Assembly: GCA_964016885.1 (NCBI GenBank)
Contig: OZ024742.1
Span: 303,862,001-303,926,000 of the forward strand
Reading direction: 5' to 3'
DNA length: 64,000 nucleotides
Source: Eledone cirrhosa
Lineage: Eukaryota
Part shown: positions 2,637 through 43,302 of the stretch, piece after piece
How the letters are laid out: every line of letters starts with the position of its first letter
How positions within the stretch are numbered: position 1 is the stretch's first letter
Translations under genes and position numbers: made by a program
The notes under the pieces: generated by a model
Told to the model about the DNA's origin: nothing
The model's input: only the letters and a program-made list of their open reading frames with translations
Databases searched by the model: none

Positions 2637-2904
2637 ATAAGTAAATAAAATTAAATAAAATAAGATAAATAAATACATACACAAGCACATAAACACACAC
2701 TAGTCACCCAGCAGACACAACACTATACACACTAGTCACACATCACACATAACACTATACACACACGCAAACGCATGCGCAAAGAAGACAAAATAAAATA
2801 AGATAAACAAACAAGCAAATAAATAAATAAATATATAGACAGACTGAACAAAAAAAAAAAAATGGCGTAGACATACAACACAACAGGAGGAACAATGAAT
2901 ATAA

Positions 2905-2951
2905 CACCACTGACGATGTTGCAGATGTGCAACGAAAGATTTATGTAAATT
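2905..2951 (+). ncRNA. Atypical hammerhead core in Naiad pLTR (mirror copy at about 1040-1085 on the minus strand)
   Basis: CTGACGA-T-GTTGCA-GATG-TGCAAC-GAAA gives a core and a perfect stem II. No clean stem I or III was found. Confidence 0.5.
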
Positions 2952-3232
2952 ATGTAAACTATATATATGTGTTTGTGTCTATATTGTATCTGTATTATTT
3001 TTGACCGCCGGTCAGTCAATGGCAACATTGAGGACCGAGTAAGTTAGATCGCAGATATATATATATAAAAGACAGCGAGAAGCGAAAACCAACCAAACAG
3101 TGAGTGTGTTCTGTTATTAATTCTGGCAATATTACGCAAATATGACCCTCCCCAAATATAACAATATCTGTTTCGACACACGATTTCATATAAAAAACCT
3201 CGCAAAACTAATTCATCGCCGCTATATCTATA

Positions 3233-3341
<109 letters not shown>

Positions 3342-3373
3342 AGAACAAAAGATGGTTAAAAGAGTTCCATGTA

Positions 3374-3440
3374 TTTTATTATGCGCATTTCAAAAACAAA
3401 TATCGTCATGCAATAATATTTGTGTTTTCATCAGATAAAA
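3374..3440 (-). ncRNA. Minimal type I hammerhead ribozyme (pLTR)
   Basis: TTTTAT-CTGATGA-stem II-GAAA-TGCGCA-TA-ATAAAA on the minus strand. Confidence 0.85.
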
Positions 3441-4265
3441 CAGGAAGACATGATATGAAGGTTAAAAAACACTTGTGAATAGTTCTGTTTTAAATCAACA
3501 TATGAGAAGTAGTTTTAGATTGATGTGTGATATTGGGAAAAATATTTTATTTAGAGGGGGGTGGGTTGGAAAGGATGAAAAAGAGGAGGAGATGAGAGTA
3601 AAAAGTTGAGAGGGAGGAGTATAATGAGGAAGGATGAGATAGGAGGAGAGATGGGTGATAGAGAGAGAGAGATAACTTTTATAACTGAGAAAGATATATT
3701 GTTTTACATAGAGAGGTTGAAAACCGTTGGAAGATAATGTATAAATTAAAAGAATTTGAAAGTTAACGAAGAGAAAAACATAATGTAAAGTTAATATTGA
3801 GGGGTTTGATAATATGTGCGATGTTAAGAAAATGTTGATATGTATTATTAAAAGGAACAACAGGTTATTTAAGTAAGGAAATATTGTGAGATGACCATGA
3901 ATGAGTTAGATGAAAGTGAGAAAAGATAATGAATTGAGGATGAATAATCTAACGTCAAAAAAATGTATATGTTTACGAAGGATTTTTACAAGGTGATATA
4001 GAGTAAGAATGTATTGTATTATGTAATAATTGATTCTATGTTAGGCAAGAGTGAGAAAAGGTACAGATTAGGGGTTAGACATTAAAAGAAGAAGAGAAGA
4101 AAGGGAAGTGATAAATAGGAGCGATGTAGAATGAGTAACAAGTATTATAGAATGTATAATAACCTTTGAAATAAGGTAGACAGATGGGTATATTTTTAAA
4201 AGAAGTGTATATATATATATATGTGCCTTTGAGAAAAAGATTCTAAATTGATAAAGAATTGAATA

Positions 4266-5264
4266 TTAGCTGTATACTTTGTGAAATGTTTTATGGAATT
4301 TATGCAAGCAGATAGAAAACAAGTCAGTGCGTCTATTTATTATAGAATCTAAATTAGAAATAATGGTAAATTTTTCATTTAGACAGAGATTGCAAATTTT
4401 GGATAGAGAACTGTTCAAGTATGGAGACGCAGAAGAAACCTTCTTCCAAAAGATGCTATATTTAATATTTTTGTCTTTCAAGGACCATATGAGTTCTGAG
4501 AGAGCCGTGTTGGTTCTTTTAAGTTTGTATTTAAAAGACGAATGATGGTTATAAAGACGAGCTTTAAAAGAGGTGGAAGTGGAGCCAAAATAGGTGAAGG
4601 AATTGGTGTCAGTTATAACTTTACATTCGTAAATTAAGTTTTTATCAAGACAATGGTTGTTGAGAGGACATTTATTTTTAATAGGGCAATTGCGATTAGA
4701 GAGATTATTAATGAGTGACCTAGTGTTATCTATAGAAGGAATTGGATTGGAGAAGTTATTTGCGATAGGAATAATAGTTTCTTGATTTAGAATGGGATTA
4801 AGAACATTTAGCGAAGTTGTGTTTGACGTTGTATTTGGGTTTGTAGAAATTAGCCTAGGGTTTACAATGACGTCGGGAGTACTATTATTATGATATTCAG
4901 TGTTGGAAGGAAGAGATTTAGTATTTAGTATTTTATTGTTGTGTTTAGAGATAATGTTGGAAATGTTGGAGCATGTAGAATAGGAACATTTTATAGTGTG
5001 TTTGTTAAATATTTTACTATAGATAAGTGAGGGAGGGAAGCATTTATTTAAGGCACTAAAGAATAATTTAGGAATATTGTTATTAATAGAGATGGAGAAA
5101 GGAGCATTATACCAGATTATGTTTTTGTATCTAGGTCTTTTATTAAACTTATTGGAATGATCATGATTAATTATTCTACTGTAATTTCTTCTAGAATTTG
5201 TTTCTTTACTATATTTGATTTTATCAGGATAGCCGGATTTAGAAAGCGCGTTATTATAGTTGAT
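4266..5264 (-). pseudogene. Truncated PLE polyprotein C-terminus with GIY-YIG endonuclease
   Basis: Motifs checked at 5264, 4697 and 4481-4266 are in one frame (999 nt). The N-terminus and RT core are missing; the frame was not fully checked for stops. Confidence 0.8.
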
Positions 5265-5317
5265 TTAAAACTGAACTATCCACAAGTGTTGTTTAACCTT
5301 CATATCATGTCTTCCTG

Positions 5318-5384
5318 TTTTATCTGATGAAAACACAAATACTATTGCATGATGATGTTTGTTTTTGAAATGCGCATAATAAAA
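5318..5384 (+). ncRNA. Minimal type I hammerhead ribozyme (inverted pLTR arm)
   Basis: Stem I TTTTAT/ATAAAA; CTGATGA at 5324; GAAA at 5367; palindromic stem III ATGCGCAT; predicted cleavage after 5378. Confidence 0.87.
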
Positions 5385-5509
5385 TACATGGAACTCTTTT
5401 AACCATCTTTTGTTCTTATATATTATGTATACTCCTCTCCTACAAACTGTAGAGTGCTTCTTATCCGATATCTGCATTGCTTTATTGTACTACAATAAAA
5501 CTCACCTCC

Positions 5510-17029: not shown

Positions 17030-17592
<563 letters not shown>

Positions 17593-29595: not shown

Positions 29596-29677
<82 letters not shown>

Positions 29678-29681
<4 letters not shown>

Positions 29682-29877
29682 AAGTATGACCCCGACGGCA
29701 GAGCTCAAGCCGTTTCAACGGCTATTTCTGGACTGAAATAGCTAGAAATAGCCGTCGAAACGGCTTGAGTTCTGCCGTCGGGGTCATACTTTTTCCTATT
29801 TCCCACTCTACTACCCTAAGTATTGAGTACTCTGGTACGTTATGGTCCAGCTGGCTCCTTACCACAATTCCTTTGTT
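29678..29877 (+). mobile_element. Hairpin element built from the 3' half of a hammerhead, plus tail
   Basis: Near-perfect inverted repeat 29678-29796. The right arm reads GCCGTC-GAAA-CGGC-TTGAGTTCT-GCCG-TC-GGGG. Flanked by (TA)n. Confidence 0.8.
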
Positions 29878-29996
29878 ATATATATATATATTGAAATAAA
29901 ATAACAAGGACGATTGGTTACTCCTTTATATATATATATACACGCTCACACGCACACACATGAATATATATATATATATATATACACACACATGCG

Positions 29997-35597: not shown

Positions 35598-35659
35598 ATA
35601 TATATAATATTATTAAAAATATTAATAAATGAGTAATATTATCATAACCCAAGTATATA

Positions 35660-35718
35660 TGTTATTATACATATTTCAAAGGTACAATGGTGTTTCAGTA
35701 CGTTTTCATCAGATAAAA
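35660..35718 (-). ncRNA. Minimal type I hammerhead ribozyme
   Basis: TTTTAT-CTGATGA-AAACGTAC...GTACCTTT-GAAA-TATGTA-TA-ATAACA. Confidence 0.8.
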
Positions 35719-35840
35719 TATATAAGAGATTAGATATACAATATACCGTAAGGTCTTGAATCTTCAATTTCTATAGTGGCACTACAGGAATTGAAGATTC
35801 ATGACCTTAGCGGTATATTGTATATCTAATCTCTTATATA

Positions 35841-35895
35841 TTTTATCTGATGAAAACGTACTGACCATTGCACATTTGAAATATGTATAATAAAA
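35841..35895 (+). ncRNA. Minimal type I hammerhead ribozyme
   Basis: TTTTAT-CTGATGA-AAACGTAC...GCACATTT-GAAA-TATGTA-TA-ATAAAA; stem II weakened. Confidence 0.75.
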
Positions 35896-37400
35896 TATAT
35901 ACTTGTGTTATGATAATATTTTGAATAATATTATATATATATAGATACTCCAGATAAATAACTGTCGAGTGCTTCTAATCTATTGTAGAATTGAATTCAT
36001 TGAATAATCAACGAACCATATAAACTTTTGGTTATATATATATATATAATAAATACATTAGACAATTATTAAAGTTGTGTTCAAATCTTTAATAGATGAC
36101 AATCATTTCTTACAAACTCTTGTTTGAAGTCATCGGAACATTATCAACGTTTCCACATATAATTAACCTCCTATTCAACTGAACAATAATATAGATACAT
36201 ATATATTGATGTTGTGAGCAACAGCTTCGTAGTTGCAGGGTGGAATGGATGTGACATATATTTTACGAGAATTGTACAATAATTGTACAAAAATTCAAAT
36301 ACAAATTCAAATCAAAAACACGGAGTGGAATACATGCAACAGATAAAACAAGAGAATAGTCCAATCATTAAAGAGGCATTGAGAGAGGAGTTTTGAGAAA
36401 GGAAGAGTACATTAACAATACATATGCAGGCGTGTGGAGAGTGCAACTGCGTTAGTCATATACATGAGAAGGAAACAAGCAAAGTTATTATGCATATATG
36501 TAAATGAATAAATACTGCACTTTAAGCAAATATGTTAATGTATTAGAATCTATGGTGGATGCTGTATGTTGATAGTGTTCGAATTTGTGTGTTGAGAAAC
36601 ATACAGTTTTTGCAGACTTTTCCATCACATATGTTGAATTACATTTTAGTTAATGTTTATATTGAATGTTTTAAGTTAGTTCGAGCAATGGATTGTAAAT
36701 TAGTCTTAATATTCATATTCATAGACAATATTTGATCAACCGGTAAATTTTCCAATCGTTAATTTCCGGAAGTGAATAAGGGGAGCTAATGCGTAAGGGG
36801 AGGTAACTAGCTAATTAAGTTCAATTCAGTTATTAAAATTCTTTGCTCTAATACACATTATAATGTGATACCATTGAATCTCTATTATACAACGGTGTAT
36901 ATTTATACTTGATTTTAAATACAGTGTATATTACTATCATACATTAAAGGTCTCTTTAGATTGTTATCTATTCATTACTGGACAAGGTATATGTTATGAA
37001 GAATTGTATAGCTGTTAATATGTCAAAATAAATATATCATATGTGTAATAATATACATTATTGTTTTGAAAGTTAATCCCTAATATACAATGCTACTACA
37101 TTTTATATTTAATTATAAATGTATATATAGTTTATTATCACATATTACATTAAATTTCTCTAGATACTAACTACCAAATATCCATTACTGTATATAATAT
37201 AATTAATCTATTGTAGTTATATCACAATGTGGTAACTCTATGTTTAATTCTAACTGTTATTGCAGAGCATAAGGTTAGAGATGAATAGGAGTTGTGTAGA
37301 GGAAAGAGTAGGTCGAAGTGTTTGTGGTTGTGGGTGCTGATAAGTCCTACATGTGAAGTGTTAATGGTGGTGGGGAATTCAAATCTGACATTGTTGTATA

Positions 37401-40035
37401 CTAACAGTTAGGTTTATAGTTATGGAACGAGAGCCGGTGCCGGTGTTGGCACGAGGAAAATGTCTCTGACTTTCTATTAAGGAGGTCTAGTTTTGGAAAG
37501 ATTATAGTATGGGTCTCCAGAATGCAAAGATTACACAATTTATTCGGTGGTTTATACGATGAGGCCCTACCTACTACTTCCCATTGCAGTGTAAATGGTC
37601 TATTCCTTGTTTTCAGAGAGTGTACGTAGCAAGATAAAGAAATGGAATTGGCTAGTTTTATGGAATTGGCTAGTTTTATGAAAGAGCGGAGGTGCGAGTT
37701 GTATCTCGTCTTGAAGCTGTTCGAAGTAGAGCCTATATATGTTTTAGAAGAGTTGTTTGCGTTGATGGTGCATGAGTAGATGATGTCTTTGGATAAGCAA
37801 TTATTACCTAAGGGGCAAGTTCTATTAGTTCTACAGTTACATTTATTCTGGATGTTAGCTTGCCGGTTACTATGTTGTGAAGAATTCTGGTTGCTAGGGA
37901 TAGTACTAGGGTAATGATATTCGTCATTCGATTTGTAATTGATTTCGTTAGTGCTATTATCATTATTACTATAATTACTACTATGGTTTATAGGTACTAA
38001 TTTTACCTCCTGTTGTTTTAATTAGTTGGAAATAATTATTAATCTTCCTTTTATTACTACTAGCTATATGGTATGCTATGTTAGGTGTGGTGGAGTACGA
38101 GATTTTAATGGTATTTCTATTGATAAGATTATGGTACTTGTGGCCGGATGGGAAGTTTTTTTCTAAGATAGAGAAGAAAGCCTTAGGAAAGTTGGTAGAG
38201 ACGTTTATATTGAAAGGGGGACTGAAGAATGTATTAGTTCTTCTATTTTTGTTTTTAGTAATGGTTTTTTTTATCTCTGTTTATATTATTATCGTGGTGT
38301 TTATTTTGTTGTGAGTTAAGTTTGGTATTAGCCTTCGTCTTAGAGTTATAGTGGCTAGTGCTTTTATTATTTTTCCTCGTGGCCATATTATGAGAGATAA
38401 TGTTGTAACTATGTGATTTTATAGGTAGGAATTCAATTCCGTTCTTGTGTCCTGATTTAGCTAGGACCTAATTATAGTATTGTGAATGATTGTTAAATGT
38501 GGTTTCATTATATGATAGATTAGGGCGGTGGATTGGCAGTATCGATAGAGGGTCGGACGCCAAGCTTTCCAGCATAGTTACGTCCCTTTACGATCTGAGT
38601 TCAAATCCCGCCGAGGTTGACTTTGCCTTTCATCCTTACGGGGTCGATAAAATAAAGTACCAGTAATTCACTGGGTAATTGCTGGCCTTGTGCCTAAAGT
38701 AGAAACAATTATATGATAGATTAGAGATTCTATTAGATATTCCTTTAGTAATAGAGTTTAATATGGATTTAGGGTGGTTAGAGTTGGTATTCAAATAAAT
38801 TAGTTTTTCGTTAGGTTTATGATAGGGTGTGTAAATCTTAGAGTCTAGGCAAAGGGTAGCATCTAGGAAGTTAACGTGTTTAGTGTTTTTATCTAGGGTG
38901 ATACTTAAGTTGAAGTTTTGAAAATTTTGTGTAATTGTTTCCTAGTTGTTTCAATATTAAATTTTTTATAGTCTATCAGGAGTAGTGCATCATCGCGGTA
39001 TAAAGCACCGCTGAGGTAGGGTAGGTTCTTATGAATTCCATTTAGTAGATATAGGCCCACCAAATCAGTGAGCTGCGCCGAGTCACTAGATCCCATAGTT
39101 ATATCGAATTTGTTATGCGTATCCTTGCGGGTCCACAATTGATCTTCAAATGTAATTATGGTTTTTCGGGCCGCAAGTATGACATCAATTTGGGATCTAG
39201 TCAGGTCCCTATTGTTCATGGCCATAATTAAAGCCTTATTTAATAGGATAGGGGAAATCGAGGTGTAGTATGAATTGATATCAACTTGAATAATTTTTTT
39301 ATTTTTACTCTCTTCAATACCCTTGAACCATTCAATAACTTCACCTGTATTTCCCCATTGGTTAAGGTATATTTTGTGCTTAAATTGTGGGATGATTCTA
39401 TCTAATATTTTCTTGCTGATAATACCAATGTCAGACTTGGAAGGGCAAATTAGTCTTATTGAAGGGTTACTAATGAAGTCCTCTTTATGGTCCTTCAGAG
39501 AGAGAGTCTAGGGGGGTTAGGGGTGTATGGCTGTGTATGTCTCTGAAGTCCTAATTTACACACTATACTACGGCCTTCTATATTTATATCTTCTAGGTTT
39601 TTAGTAGTAGTTTTCCTGTAGCTCCTATGCAGTTCCTTATATATAAATTTTCTATAAGTATCGTAATCTAAGCTATATATATATTATTAGTTTTATCTGC
39701 ATGTACTAGGATTTTTTAATTTTTATTAAATCCTTTAATAGTAGAGTTAAGTAGTTTAAGAAGGTGTTGTTTCTAACACGATGTTTTTTGTATCTTATGT
39801 TCTTAACTAGTTTAATCAGATCATTTTCAAAACAGTTTAATAATGTGTTGTGAGGAGGGCTTTTAAATGTTTTAAAGCAGTAAGTGTCGAAGTTATTAGT
39901 ATCTCTGTTATTGTCTGATCGGTTTCTATCGTAATGAAATGTACTCCATCTCACTCTATTGATAAAAGAGTTGACACTATTGATCAATAATTTTTCATAT
40001 GTATCTTTAGGTAATATAGGTATGTTCTTAGTTCA
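37401..40035 (-). pseudogene. PLE RT + GIY-YIG polyprotein, disrupted by frameshifts and a SINE
   Basis: KNIP...FINRVRW; FDITMGSSDSAQLTDLVGLYLL; LYRDDAL; CNCRTNRTCPLGNNCL; IIYSC; YIGSTSNSFKTRYNSH; CNLCILE; CQHRHR. Confidence 0.9.
38524..38707 (+). mobile_element. tRNA-derived SINE nested in the PLE, 17-bp TSD
   Basis: ATTATATGATAGATTAG at 38507-38523 and 38708-38724. Confidence 0.95.
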
Positions 40036-40985: not shown

Positions 40986-42169
40986 TACTAAATGATTTGA
41001 ACACAACTTTGATAATTGTCTAATTTATTTATTTTCCTGCTCTGTAAAACAACTGATATTCTTACATTGAGCTATTTCTCTTACTGGTAATAAGGTAGTA
41101 GTAAATTACTGACCTTTCCTGTTTATAGTTGTTTAAAGCATATACATAACTATAAATAGTATTATTATTATTATTATTATATATATATATGAGGTATGTC
41201 AAAAAAGAAAATGAAACGCAAAAAAACCCAACATATTTTAAATCCAAACTAGAAGTTTTCTCCTTCGAAATAATCCTCCTCGAATCTAACCCCCCCCCCC
41301 CCTCATTCGCCACACCTCCATGAATTTCAGGAAGGATTCTTTGGGTATTATTCACATATCAGGGCCCTCTCGATTGCTTCCATGTCCGGAAAACGGGTCC
41401 AGTTAACAAAAGCATGTGAAAAAAGAAAAAACATACAAAAGCTGCTGAGAACTGAGTTTGCTGTTAAATACTCCCCAGATATTACGTCTCACGGCGACGA
41501 AACCTGCTAATCCTTATTTCACTCATATAACACACAGCACACTAAGTCCTGTTACTTTTCTGACACGCCTCCTATAGTATGCTGCGGTAACCTGTATTAT
41601 TATAAAACTTACATTTATTTAGTATAGTATATTTTCAGTACACTACGCTATACATTGAGAATATAGTTCATAAACATAATCAATTCCTCCTTCTGATGTT
41701 ACAATATATTACATGTCATATATTATTTCACTTTGCAAACACTCATTCCTTATATACTGGCACCATATCCAAGTAAAGTGTACAAAATACGATCTAATTT
41801 GCCGACATTCGTGATGTGTATGAATTTTTAATGAACTGTCTGACTCCATAGTCATCGTTGTGATCGGTTTCAATAAGGATCATTCAAATCATCCTCTAAT
41901 ATTATCCTTCACCCCAAAGCTAACATTATTGTCTACGAAGATGTTTAGGAGAGTACTTGAAAGTTTTACTCCAAGGAAAATTTAGCTCTCAGTCTCTCTC
42001 TCTAGCTCTGTCTCTCTCCCTCTCATTAAGTACACACACACATATATATATATATTTATATATTATTAGTACAGATTAAAGTTTAAGCAAAGAATCGCTA
42101 CTTTCACCCTATTTTGGTCTTCATAATTTAATTATTATTGCTATATATATATATATAACCATGACCAGT

Positions 42170-42209
42170 CCGAGCTGAAGATCCACTAAGGTGAAACAAT
42201 TGTTCTCGG
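42170..42209 (+). ncRNA. Minimal type I hammerhead in a solo pLTR fragment (about 42158-42300)
   Basis: CCGAG-CTGAAGA-TCCACTAAGGT-GAAA-CAATTG-TT-CTCGG. Perfect stem I, palindromic stem III, weak stem II. Confidence 0.75.
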
Positions 42210-42333
42210 TATGGTGAATTAACTATTGTGTTACAACTTCTACTTAACTCGTCCCATGGACTGAGTGAACTACCACTACGGATATTACCTTCCAGTGTTC
42301 TACCTCTCTCTCTCTCTCTCACAAACAAACTCA

Positions 42334-42951: not shown

Positions 42952-42959
<8 letters not shown>

Positions 42960-43302
42960 AATAACAGGAGGCTGGACTGGTGTACAGCCTTGAAAGTTAA
43001 ATGATACTGTGATCATTTCAATGACAGGGTTCAGTATGAAATATATTATATTTTGAATACCTGATGATGTCACCGGATTCATACTGAAGCCGGTCATTGA
43101 AATGATCATCGTATAATAAACCTTTCAAGGATTTACACCAGTCCAGCTTCCTGTTATTTTATAATAATTAACTCCGTACTCGCACCACCAACTACACAAA
43201 CGAAGACGGGTGAGTTGCATTACGTTGAGTGCTCTCCATAATATTACATCGAGATTGTCCGTACGTAATGACCAGTTCTATCAAGAGGTGAACCAACAGA
43301 CC

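Follow-up and report, generated by a model that had tools for sequence, protein, structure and literature searches.

Head-to-head palindromic stubs of a Penelope-like element in Eledone cirrhosa as probable run-off copies of a single RNA

A hairpin-forming stub embedded in a (TA)n repeat of the Eledone cirrhosa genome probably consists of two target-primed cDNAs that ran off the predicted capped 5′ end of one RNA of a Penelope-like element (PLE) and were joined head to head. The stub lies in a stretch of 64,000 nucleotides (GenBank assembly GCA_964016885.1, contig OZ024742.1, positions 303,862,001 to 303,926,000 of the forward strand), hereafter the window. In two earlier studies, the origin of the inverted ends and one-sided tails of PLEs is named as an open question (PMC8557442, PMC11167929). 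The Eledone family offers thousands of independent junctions, which speak for a pair of cDNAs made from one RNA and link the palindrome's centre to RNA 5′ ends.

The window palindrome and its parts

The arms of the palindrome (29678-29731 and 29742-29795) differ by 3 mismatches in 54 bp and enclose a 10-nt centre, giving a total of 118 bp, in agreement with the approximately 119 bp reported in a preliminary description made from the sequence. Folded as RNA, the hairpin reaches -116.5 kcal/mol (z -17.9), and none of 200 shuffles was equally stable. Both flanks consist of (TA)n (29619-29677 on the left and 29878-29891 on the right), the repeat in which family copies sit. Between them, the insertion comprises four segments. 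The short-end arm (29678-29734, minus strand), likely one cDNA, is an inverted element end running from +1 at 29734 to about +57, with 29674-29734 aligning to positions 61 to 1 of the parent unit. It is followed by a junction filler (29735-29743, plus strand), which copies arm positions +7 to +14 plus one base and was described earlier as a loop. The first part of the tail-end arm (29744-29798, plus strand; +6 to +60 by family copies and unit alignment) extends up to the short-end site CCTA, and the 79-nt tail (29799-29877, plus strand) fills the distance between the short and long end sites without a mirror. An exact 29-mer of the tail occurs in 28,415 places, and in full elements the sequence after the tail continues into the 5′ UTR and the open reading frame (ORF).

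The tail-end arm contains the 3′ half of a type I hammerhead (29746-29784, plus strand), namely the 3′ strand of stem II (29746-29756), GAAA (29757-29760), stem III, GTC (29777-29779) and the 3′ strand of stem I with GGGG (29780-29783), the predicted cut falling between 29779 and 29780. This order is the one given in the preliminary description, and it holds up; parent copies fold as a three-way hammerhead. The 5′ half is missing, leaving the core incomplete, and the stub itself would be without function. Judging from its layout, the window hairpin is a single head-to-head stub with half a hammerhead and is not a non-LTR retrozyme, which is built of tandem short monomers, each with a whole hammerhead, according to bioRxiv 2026.07.22.740005. 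Among the 150 matches listed of 265 in the Rfam scan of the window, those at the position of the hairpin are to sub-threshold hairpin families, including MIR7723, and no hammerhead is present. Such stubs can be mistaken for microRNA hairpins, as well as for MITEs.

A search of the genome yielded 3,037 candidates, of which 40 were scored, and exact palindromes of the same centre region (exact 16-nt arms, centre gap <=30 nt) number 11,823, compared with 0 for a reversed-pattern control. The window palindrome is far beyond chance, yet common in the E. cirrhosa genome, and as a single locus it is ordinary. At its junction, the left arm ends at +1, the copy of +7 to +14 follows, and the right arm sets in at about +6. 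This filler class (arm ending at +1, restart at +7) has 102 genome matches, and the exact window form was found in 2 of the 100 listed. Compared with the most frequent parent, the window-type junction lacks microhomology, but an overlap of 3 nt would result from a minority parent that reads TTC before +1. The window copy carries no extra G before +1 and is of the kind whose short arm reaches further 5′.

A Hydra-like parent element

The half hammerhead had been attributed to the end of a retroelement, and the same sequence indeed ends an element that encodes a reverse transcriptase. The parent is a 3,531-bp tandem unit with an intact ORF of 717 aa, located downstream of the tail. Searches with the ORF returned 2,049 relatives, most of about 700 aa and about 40% identical, nearly all of them unnamed. 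Neither Pfam, queried with pieces of the ORF and with the whole 717-aa sequence, nor a PDB search produced a match. A C-terminal VIY...YIG motif was recognized by eye, and the top relative carries PF01541, which we take to be GIY-YIG. Besides this GIY-YIG-like motif, the ORF contains DKT, RWR (not RWK), CNCPDRSIC (CxCX5C), CNLC (CxxC) and CKH (CxH). The motifs DKT and YRDD, read against PMC8557442, indicate a PLE-type reverse transcriptase.

The parent thus appears, from its motifs, to be a Hydra-like endonuclease-bearing PLE. With the Hydra clade as presented in PMC8557442, it shares DKT, the RW-basic motif, CxCX5C, CxxC, CxH, a C-terminal motif resembling GIY-YIG and the (TA)n target. The families listed there are mostly <3 kb, in contrast to the 3,531-bp Eledone unit, and the Hydra hammerheads listed all have CTGANGA and short loops, whereas the Eledone one combines U3-A8 with a long stem III and a loop II of 33 nt. 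A length <3 kb and a canonical hammerhead are given there as general traits; since length and hammerhead core of the Eledone element differ from the listed families and its placement was made by motifs, we call it only Hydra-like.

Many ORF copies score identically, indicating that the family was active very recently. The 3,531-bp units occur in an array with an inverted arm, and further two-armed insertions are also present. One such locus (G000 C1:437196000-437215800; L145, L146) comprises four near-identical full units together with an inverted tail arm within the array. Full-length insertions have the same layout as the stubs, with arm lengths that are unrelated.

A variant hammerhead in the parent

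On the 5′ side of the position corresponding to the palindrome centre, parent copies carry the 5′ strand of stem I, TTGANAA, a G, the 5′ strand of stem II and a loop of some 33 nt that contains an inner hairpin. The window centre had been presumed to be the loop of stem II, but it is the scar of a junction. In the genome, 5,519 matches to the core pattern are present; among the first 100 listed, inspected by eye, 65 read TTGANAA and 35 CTGANAA, all four letters occur at N7, and G8 is absent. The preliminary description was correct in that parents possessing the missing half exist, but not in the CTGANGA core that it expected of them. In terms of the 3-8 position, the same 100 matches divide into 65 with U3-A8 and 35 in which an unpaired C3 faces A8. 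A C3 facing A8 is also found in a subfamily with long open ORFs (L154, L151, L072), so that cleavage may not be needed for spread.

The parent can be modelled as a type I hammerhead with three helices around a conserved core. Two parents fold as a three-way junction with z of -0.06 and -2.5, energy alone being weak evidence. In an alignment of 9 copies (90% identity), 93% of cells are paired, and no stem pair has changed on both sides among these close copies. U3-A8 is a variant previously described in Penelope hammerheads (PMC4209133). The Cercyon hammerhead of Schistosoma presented in the same source shares this core change, the G10.1-C11.1 pair, a large helix II and a palindromic loop III with the Eledone hammerhead, which differs from it in its full stem III and in a long structured loop II, the likely location of the start site.

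Arms end near a predicted transcription start

With the A of TTAGTC/TCAGTC in loop II numbered +1 (position 29734 in the window), the ends of the arms were located in an unbiased sample, the tail matches listed first on contig C1 (97 distinct of 100 listed). The sample includes 120 arms with a stem II anchor. Of these, 111 have their end at +11 to -5 and 9 extend past this region, while the stretch from -6 to -19 contains no end. Position +2 is the most frequent end (22/120), against 13/120 at +1, and a further 25/120 end at -1 to -5, a group inflated by the procedure, which picks the best match of all parents. By a second, mismatch-tolerant method, 103 of 159 ends lie <=7 nt from +1, with 0 at -99 to -21 and 8 at -100 or beyond. 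Arms extending past -4 have 851 matches in the genome, indicating that starts are spread or that some RNAs begin upstream.

We consider +1 a likely transcription start, predicted to lie inside loop II of the hammerhead. The surrounding TTAGTC/TCAGTC resembles the fly initiator TCAGTT (PMC10290830), presuming that the fly motif is applicable to Eledone. Furthermore, a TATA-like word, overlapping the 5′ strand of stem II, is present at -29 or -31 in 90 of 90 parent matches counted (overlaps included). A promoter and start inside the pLTR have been described for Penelope of D. virilis (PMC2377424). A downstream promoter element at +28 to +32 was not evident by eye. A splice site was also considered as the cause of the boundary and dropped, given that a mere 5 nt or so separate CTAAT from AG and that other subfamilies lack CTAAT.

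An extra G before +1

In all 57 parents counted, -1 is occupied by T or C. In the insertions, by comparison, 7,011 copies have G or A at this position (G in 89 of the first 100 listed) and 23,981 have T or C (C in 28 of the first 100 listed). Since the end of a partner arm is often a G, the raw ratio of 89:11 was not accepted as proof, and only a filtered count was used, for which the first 55 G/A matches and the C matches were classed by whether the partner arm supplies the base. Junctions without such an explanation include 27 with G, of which about 5 might still stem from partner or filler, versus 6 with A (p 0.0003). Over the first 24 Mb of C1, for which the listing is complete, inspection by eye gave approximately 11 G, 5 C and 3 A as free bases, a modest excess. 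The excess is confined to +1, with G in 1/6 of the arms ending at -1 and in 0/7 of those ending at -2, and in some copies both arms carry the extra G (L078, L101/L102, L110). An extra G marks the capped 5′ ends of LINE-1 (PMC11702581), and by analogy there is moderate support for the extra G in Eledone being a copied cap.

Insertions centred on the predicted hammerhead cleavage site

A pattern covering one group of subfamilies detected 47 palindromes centred near GTC-GGGG. By eye, GGGG is the exact end of both arms in 12 of these, which also contain foreign filler, 4 have one G trimmed, and 8 are ambiguous blunt joins, whereas symmetric stops 1-3 bases to either side of the cleavage site were not found among the 47. 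Of the 20 examined in detail (12 exact, 4 trimmed and 4 ambiguous), 19 have the tail on one end only. The base adjoining GGGG in the 12 exact insertions is T in 15, A in 5 and G in 4 of 24 cases, with no excess of G. These 12 symmetric-stop insertions are likely traces of rare hammerhead cleavage in vivo, the cleaved RNA sometimes serving as template, and they support the model of arms defined by RNA ends as well as the occurrence of such cleavage. The RNA that was cut may have been read-through RNA, cleaved in cis, or RNA from the putative start site, cleaved in trans. A template jump from end to end, joining cap to cleavage site, was recognized in 5 copies, one of them exact, too few to support it as a common step.

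It had been suggested that the hairpin itself could be cleaved in trans. Our calculations predict otherwise: the enzyme half gains 0.0 kcal/mol on the hairpin, compared with -16.2 on the free right arm, and the RNA of the hairpin is thus predicted not to bind it. The trans idea may survive in altered form, since RNA from the putative start site would hold the substrate half only, and the predicted cleavage site is where a few insertions, forming a rare class, come to their end.

Evidence for two cDNAs, probably on one RNA

The palindromes have two fixed 3′ ends, 79 nt apart, one per arm. Of the 69 palindromes in all fetched loci, 52 combine one long-end with one short-end arm and so carry a one-sided tail; the long/long class was assigned to 10 (in part through classifier errors caused by neighbouring copies), 1 is short/short and 6 could not be called. 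Within the 52 long/short palindromes, the short arm reaches further 5′ in 24, the long arm in 13, and the two tie in 15. Two cDNAs are needed for this, because fold-back of a single tail-primed cDNA leaves the tail arm furthest. The two arms of a palindrome agree in subfamily letters, with 49/51 pairs within one mismatch as opposed to 717/2,000 random pairs, an agreement that fits one RNA and one source locus alike. Reach towards the 5′ side is coupled as well: although only 9/120 arms are long in this respect, the partner is also long in 14 of 14 distinct long insertions with a visible partner, a count that leaves out 47 arm records without a partner inside the examined stretch. That long arms pair only with long arms suggests one shared RNA.

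This coupling bears on an alternative that we regard as unlikely, namely that two cDNAs stall on a longer RNA at a structure, either the inner hairpin of loop II or a bound protein. The 3′ strand of the inner hairpin does span approximately -3 to +5 and forms in both subfamilies folded, and the ends do spread over +7 to -5; however, stalling of each arm separately predicts pairs of mixed long and short reach, of which none was seen in 14, and the stronger stems III and II are passed. The restriction of the G excess to +1 and the correct spacing of the initiator-like and TATA-like words likewise favour an RNA end.

Even less probable is the self-priming of one cDNA that copies itself back, proposed, with an antisense template, for Penelope palindromes in PMC3846280. 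The matching of the arms in subfamily and the recurrence of arms ending at +1 with a restart at +7 are compatible with it, and a few centres do use the inner hairpin (about 3 of 100 listed loop-reaching matches; L008/L009) or stem III (L084). Most centres have no stem and show overlaps of 0-4 nt or filler instead, and both arms sometimes carry the extra G. A tail-primed cDNA cannot yield a short arm that lies further 5′ (24/52), and a run-off primed at the short end has no tail to copy. Self-priming is contradicted for about half of the copies, and the Eledone data argue against the explanation offered in PMC3846280.

Across 57 palindromes, we distinguished 47 different centres, with overlaps of 0-4 nt, trimming or fillers, as expected from end joining at each insertion, and centres of one type are shared between different subfamilies. 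Long inverted insertions exist in this genome, and inverted repeats of such length are generally unstable, raising the question of whether the centres were lost later by hairpin or cruciform deletion; such loss is highly improbable, as it gives no reason for the boundary at +1, the extra G or the empty zone from -21 to -99 and does not explain the exact symmetric stops at the cleavage site. We find it still harder to accept that the hairpin is a non-autonomous element, MITE-like or otherwise, propagated as one unit, an alternative already named in the preliminary description. In its favour, short inverted-repeat copies in TA number in the thousands and certain centres occur repeatedly, most of the 100 listed matches of the window class sharing one filler; against this, the diversity of centres and their crossing of subfamilies, the asymmetric ends with a 79-nt tail beyond the repeat, and the identity of the sequence with the end of an element encoding a reverse transcriptase show that the hairpin is not a MITE. 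Finally, fold-back or annealing through stem II of the hammerhead, the route originally proposed for joining two cDNAs, is refuted as a general one even though the centre lies a few bases 5′ of the 3′ strand of stem II and one arm (L217) and one loop-reaching match read through the loop towards the 5′ strand, since it predicts the whole 33-nt loop between the arms, a product of which no exact case is present among the first 100 listed of 851 matches with an arm running into the loop (one comes close), as against 11,823 palindromes with a centre gap <=30 nt, and 111 of 120 arms stop >15 nt before the 5′ strand of stem II; what stands of that proposal is that two cDNAs were joined.

Proposed mechanism and comparison with known systems

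For the joining of two run-off cDNAs, the following steps can be envisaged. The element's protein would cut both target strands, each cDNA would be primed at one end of the cut target, and reverse transcription would start at two internal sites near the 5′ end of the RNA. Position +1 would be the transcription start and the extra G a copied cap, and host end joining would produce the centre of the palindrome. Full-length insertions would arise from minority RNAs that run through +1, either by read-through or as multimers, in which case most events are abortive run-offs; read-through, circles and a homology jump are candidate routes to full elements. A more specific version, to which we give slightly less than even odds, holds that a protein dimer copies one RNA twice, cutting both strands and starting at one fixed site per strand, that the promoter lies inside the hammerhead, and that strong-stop stubs ending at the cap are the usual product, with read-through leading to full elements. 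With a promoter in this place, ordinary mRNA would start with half a ribozyme and yield palindromic strong-stop stubs. If this version is true, the genome preserves, to the single base, a record of the transcription start, of the cap and of occasional hammerhead cleavage in vivo. Identical intact parent copies exist, and each step is thus open to testing.

In retroviruses, minus-strand strong-stop DNA is primed internally near the RNA 5′ end and runs off at the cap; in contrast, the Eledone stub would be primed by target DNA, made twice and integrated directly. LINE-1 twin priming, as described in PMC11702581, shares two cDNAs on one RNA, end joining and a cap-derived extra G, but the internal position of its second primer varies and its arms are free of overlap. 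In Eledone, each arm has a fixed starting point close to the 5′ end, and because one stretch is copied by both, a palindrome results, unlike in LINE-1.

The architecture of the insertions is already known for PLEs. PMC8557442 and PMC3846280 describe, for endonuclease-bearing PLEs, a head-to-head 5′-truncated copy, a tail at one end, partial tandems, a microsatellite target, a hammerhead in the pLTR and a palindrome at the junction. The Eledone insertions differ from these in that 111/120 sampled arms stop at one site, giving stubs of about 200 bp, and in a tail of 79 nt instead of 30-40. For PAc, a Poseidon element of the anole studied in vitro, PMC11167929 reports that both target strands are nicked and extended at an AT-rich target, that two internal start sites bound the tail, and that product length is set by the RNA 5′ end, features that the Eledone insertions match; it found no strand bias in the start site and no reads at the cleavage site. 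In Eledone, by contrast, one strand takes each start site, and a cleavage-site class is visible in the DNA, indirect evidence for in vivo cleavage by a Penelope hammerhead. PAc belongs to another clade, and head-to-head joining and the cap are not treated in that study. The Eledone end sites at element positions +60 and +139 (29798 and 29877 in the window) are followed by or overlap TA/TAT, so that priming in (TA)n may use a pairing of 2-3 nt, unlike the non-homologous priming of PAc. Our literature search, with subscription literature outside its scope, turned up nothing on palindromes formed by run-off at the start site of a Penelope element, on a cap G or on cleavage-site stubs. Neither a predominance of start-site stubs with a cap-like G nor coupled arms or a class ending at the cleavage site appeared in it.

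Other hammerhead-like and inverted features of the window

At 39377-39498, the window contains an old fragment (70% identity) of the ORF region of the parent element. An inverted pair at 824-1204 and 2786-3167 (99% over 382 nt) carries a hammerhead-like CTGACGA...GAAA motif and ends in (TA)n; with a third copy at about 44858, it likely represents another Penelope family. More inverted pairs or palindromes are located at 3327-3499 and 5259-5431, 35635-35920, 17126-17381 and 42952-43166, all with CTGATGA motifs on one or both arms, and are likely further Penelope-type insertions. A small hammerhead-like motif at 42158-42310, with a CTGAAGA core, a short stem II and a palindromic AATT loop III, adjoins (TA)n, and a similar copy is found beside another of the loci fetched from the genome (L020).
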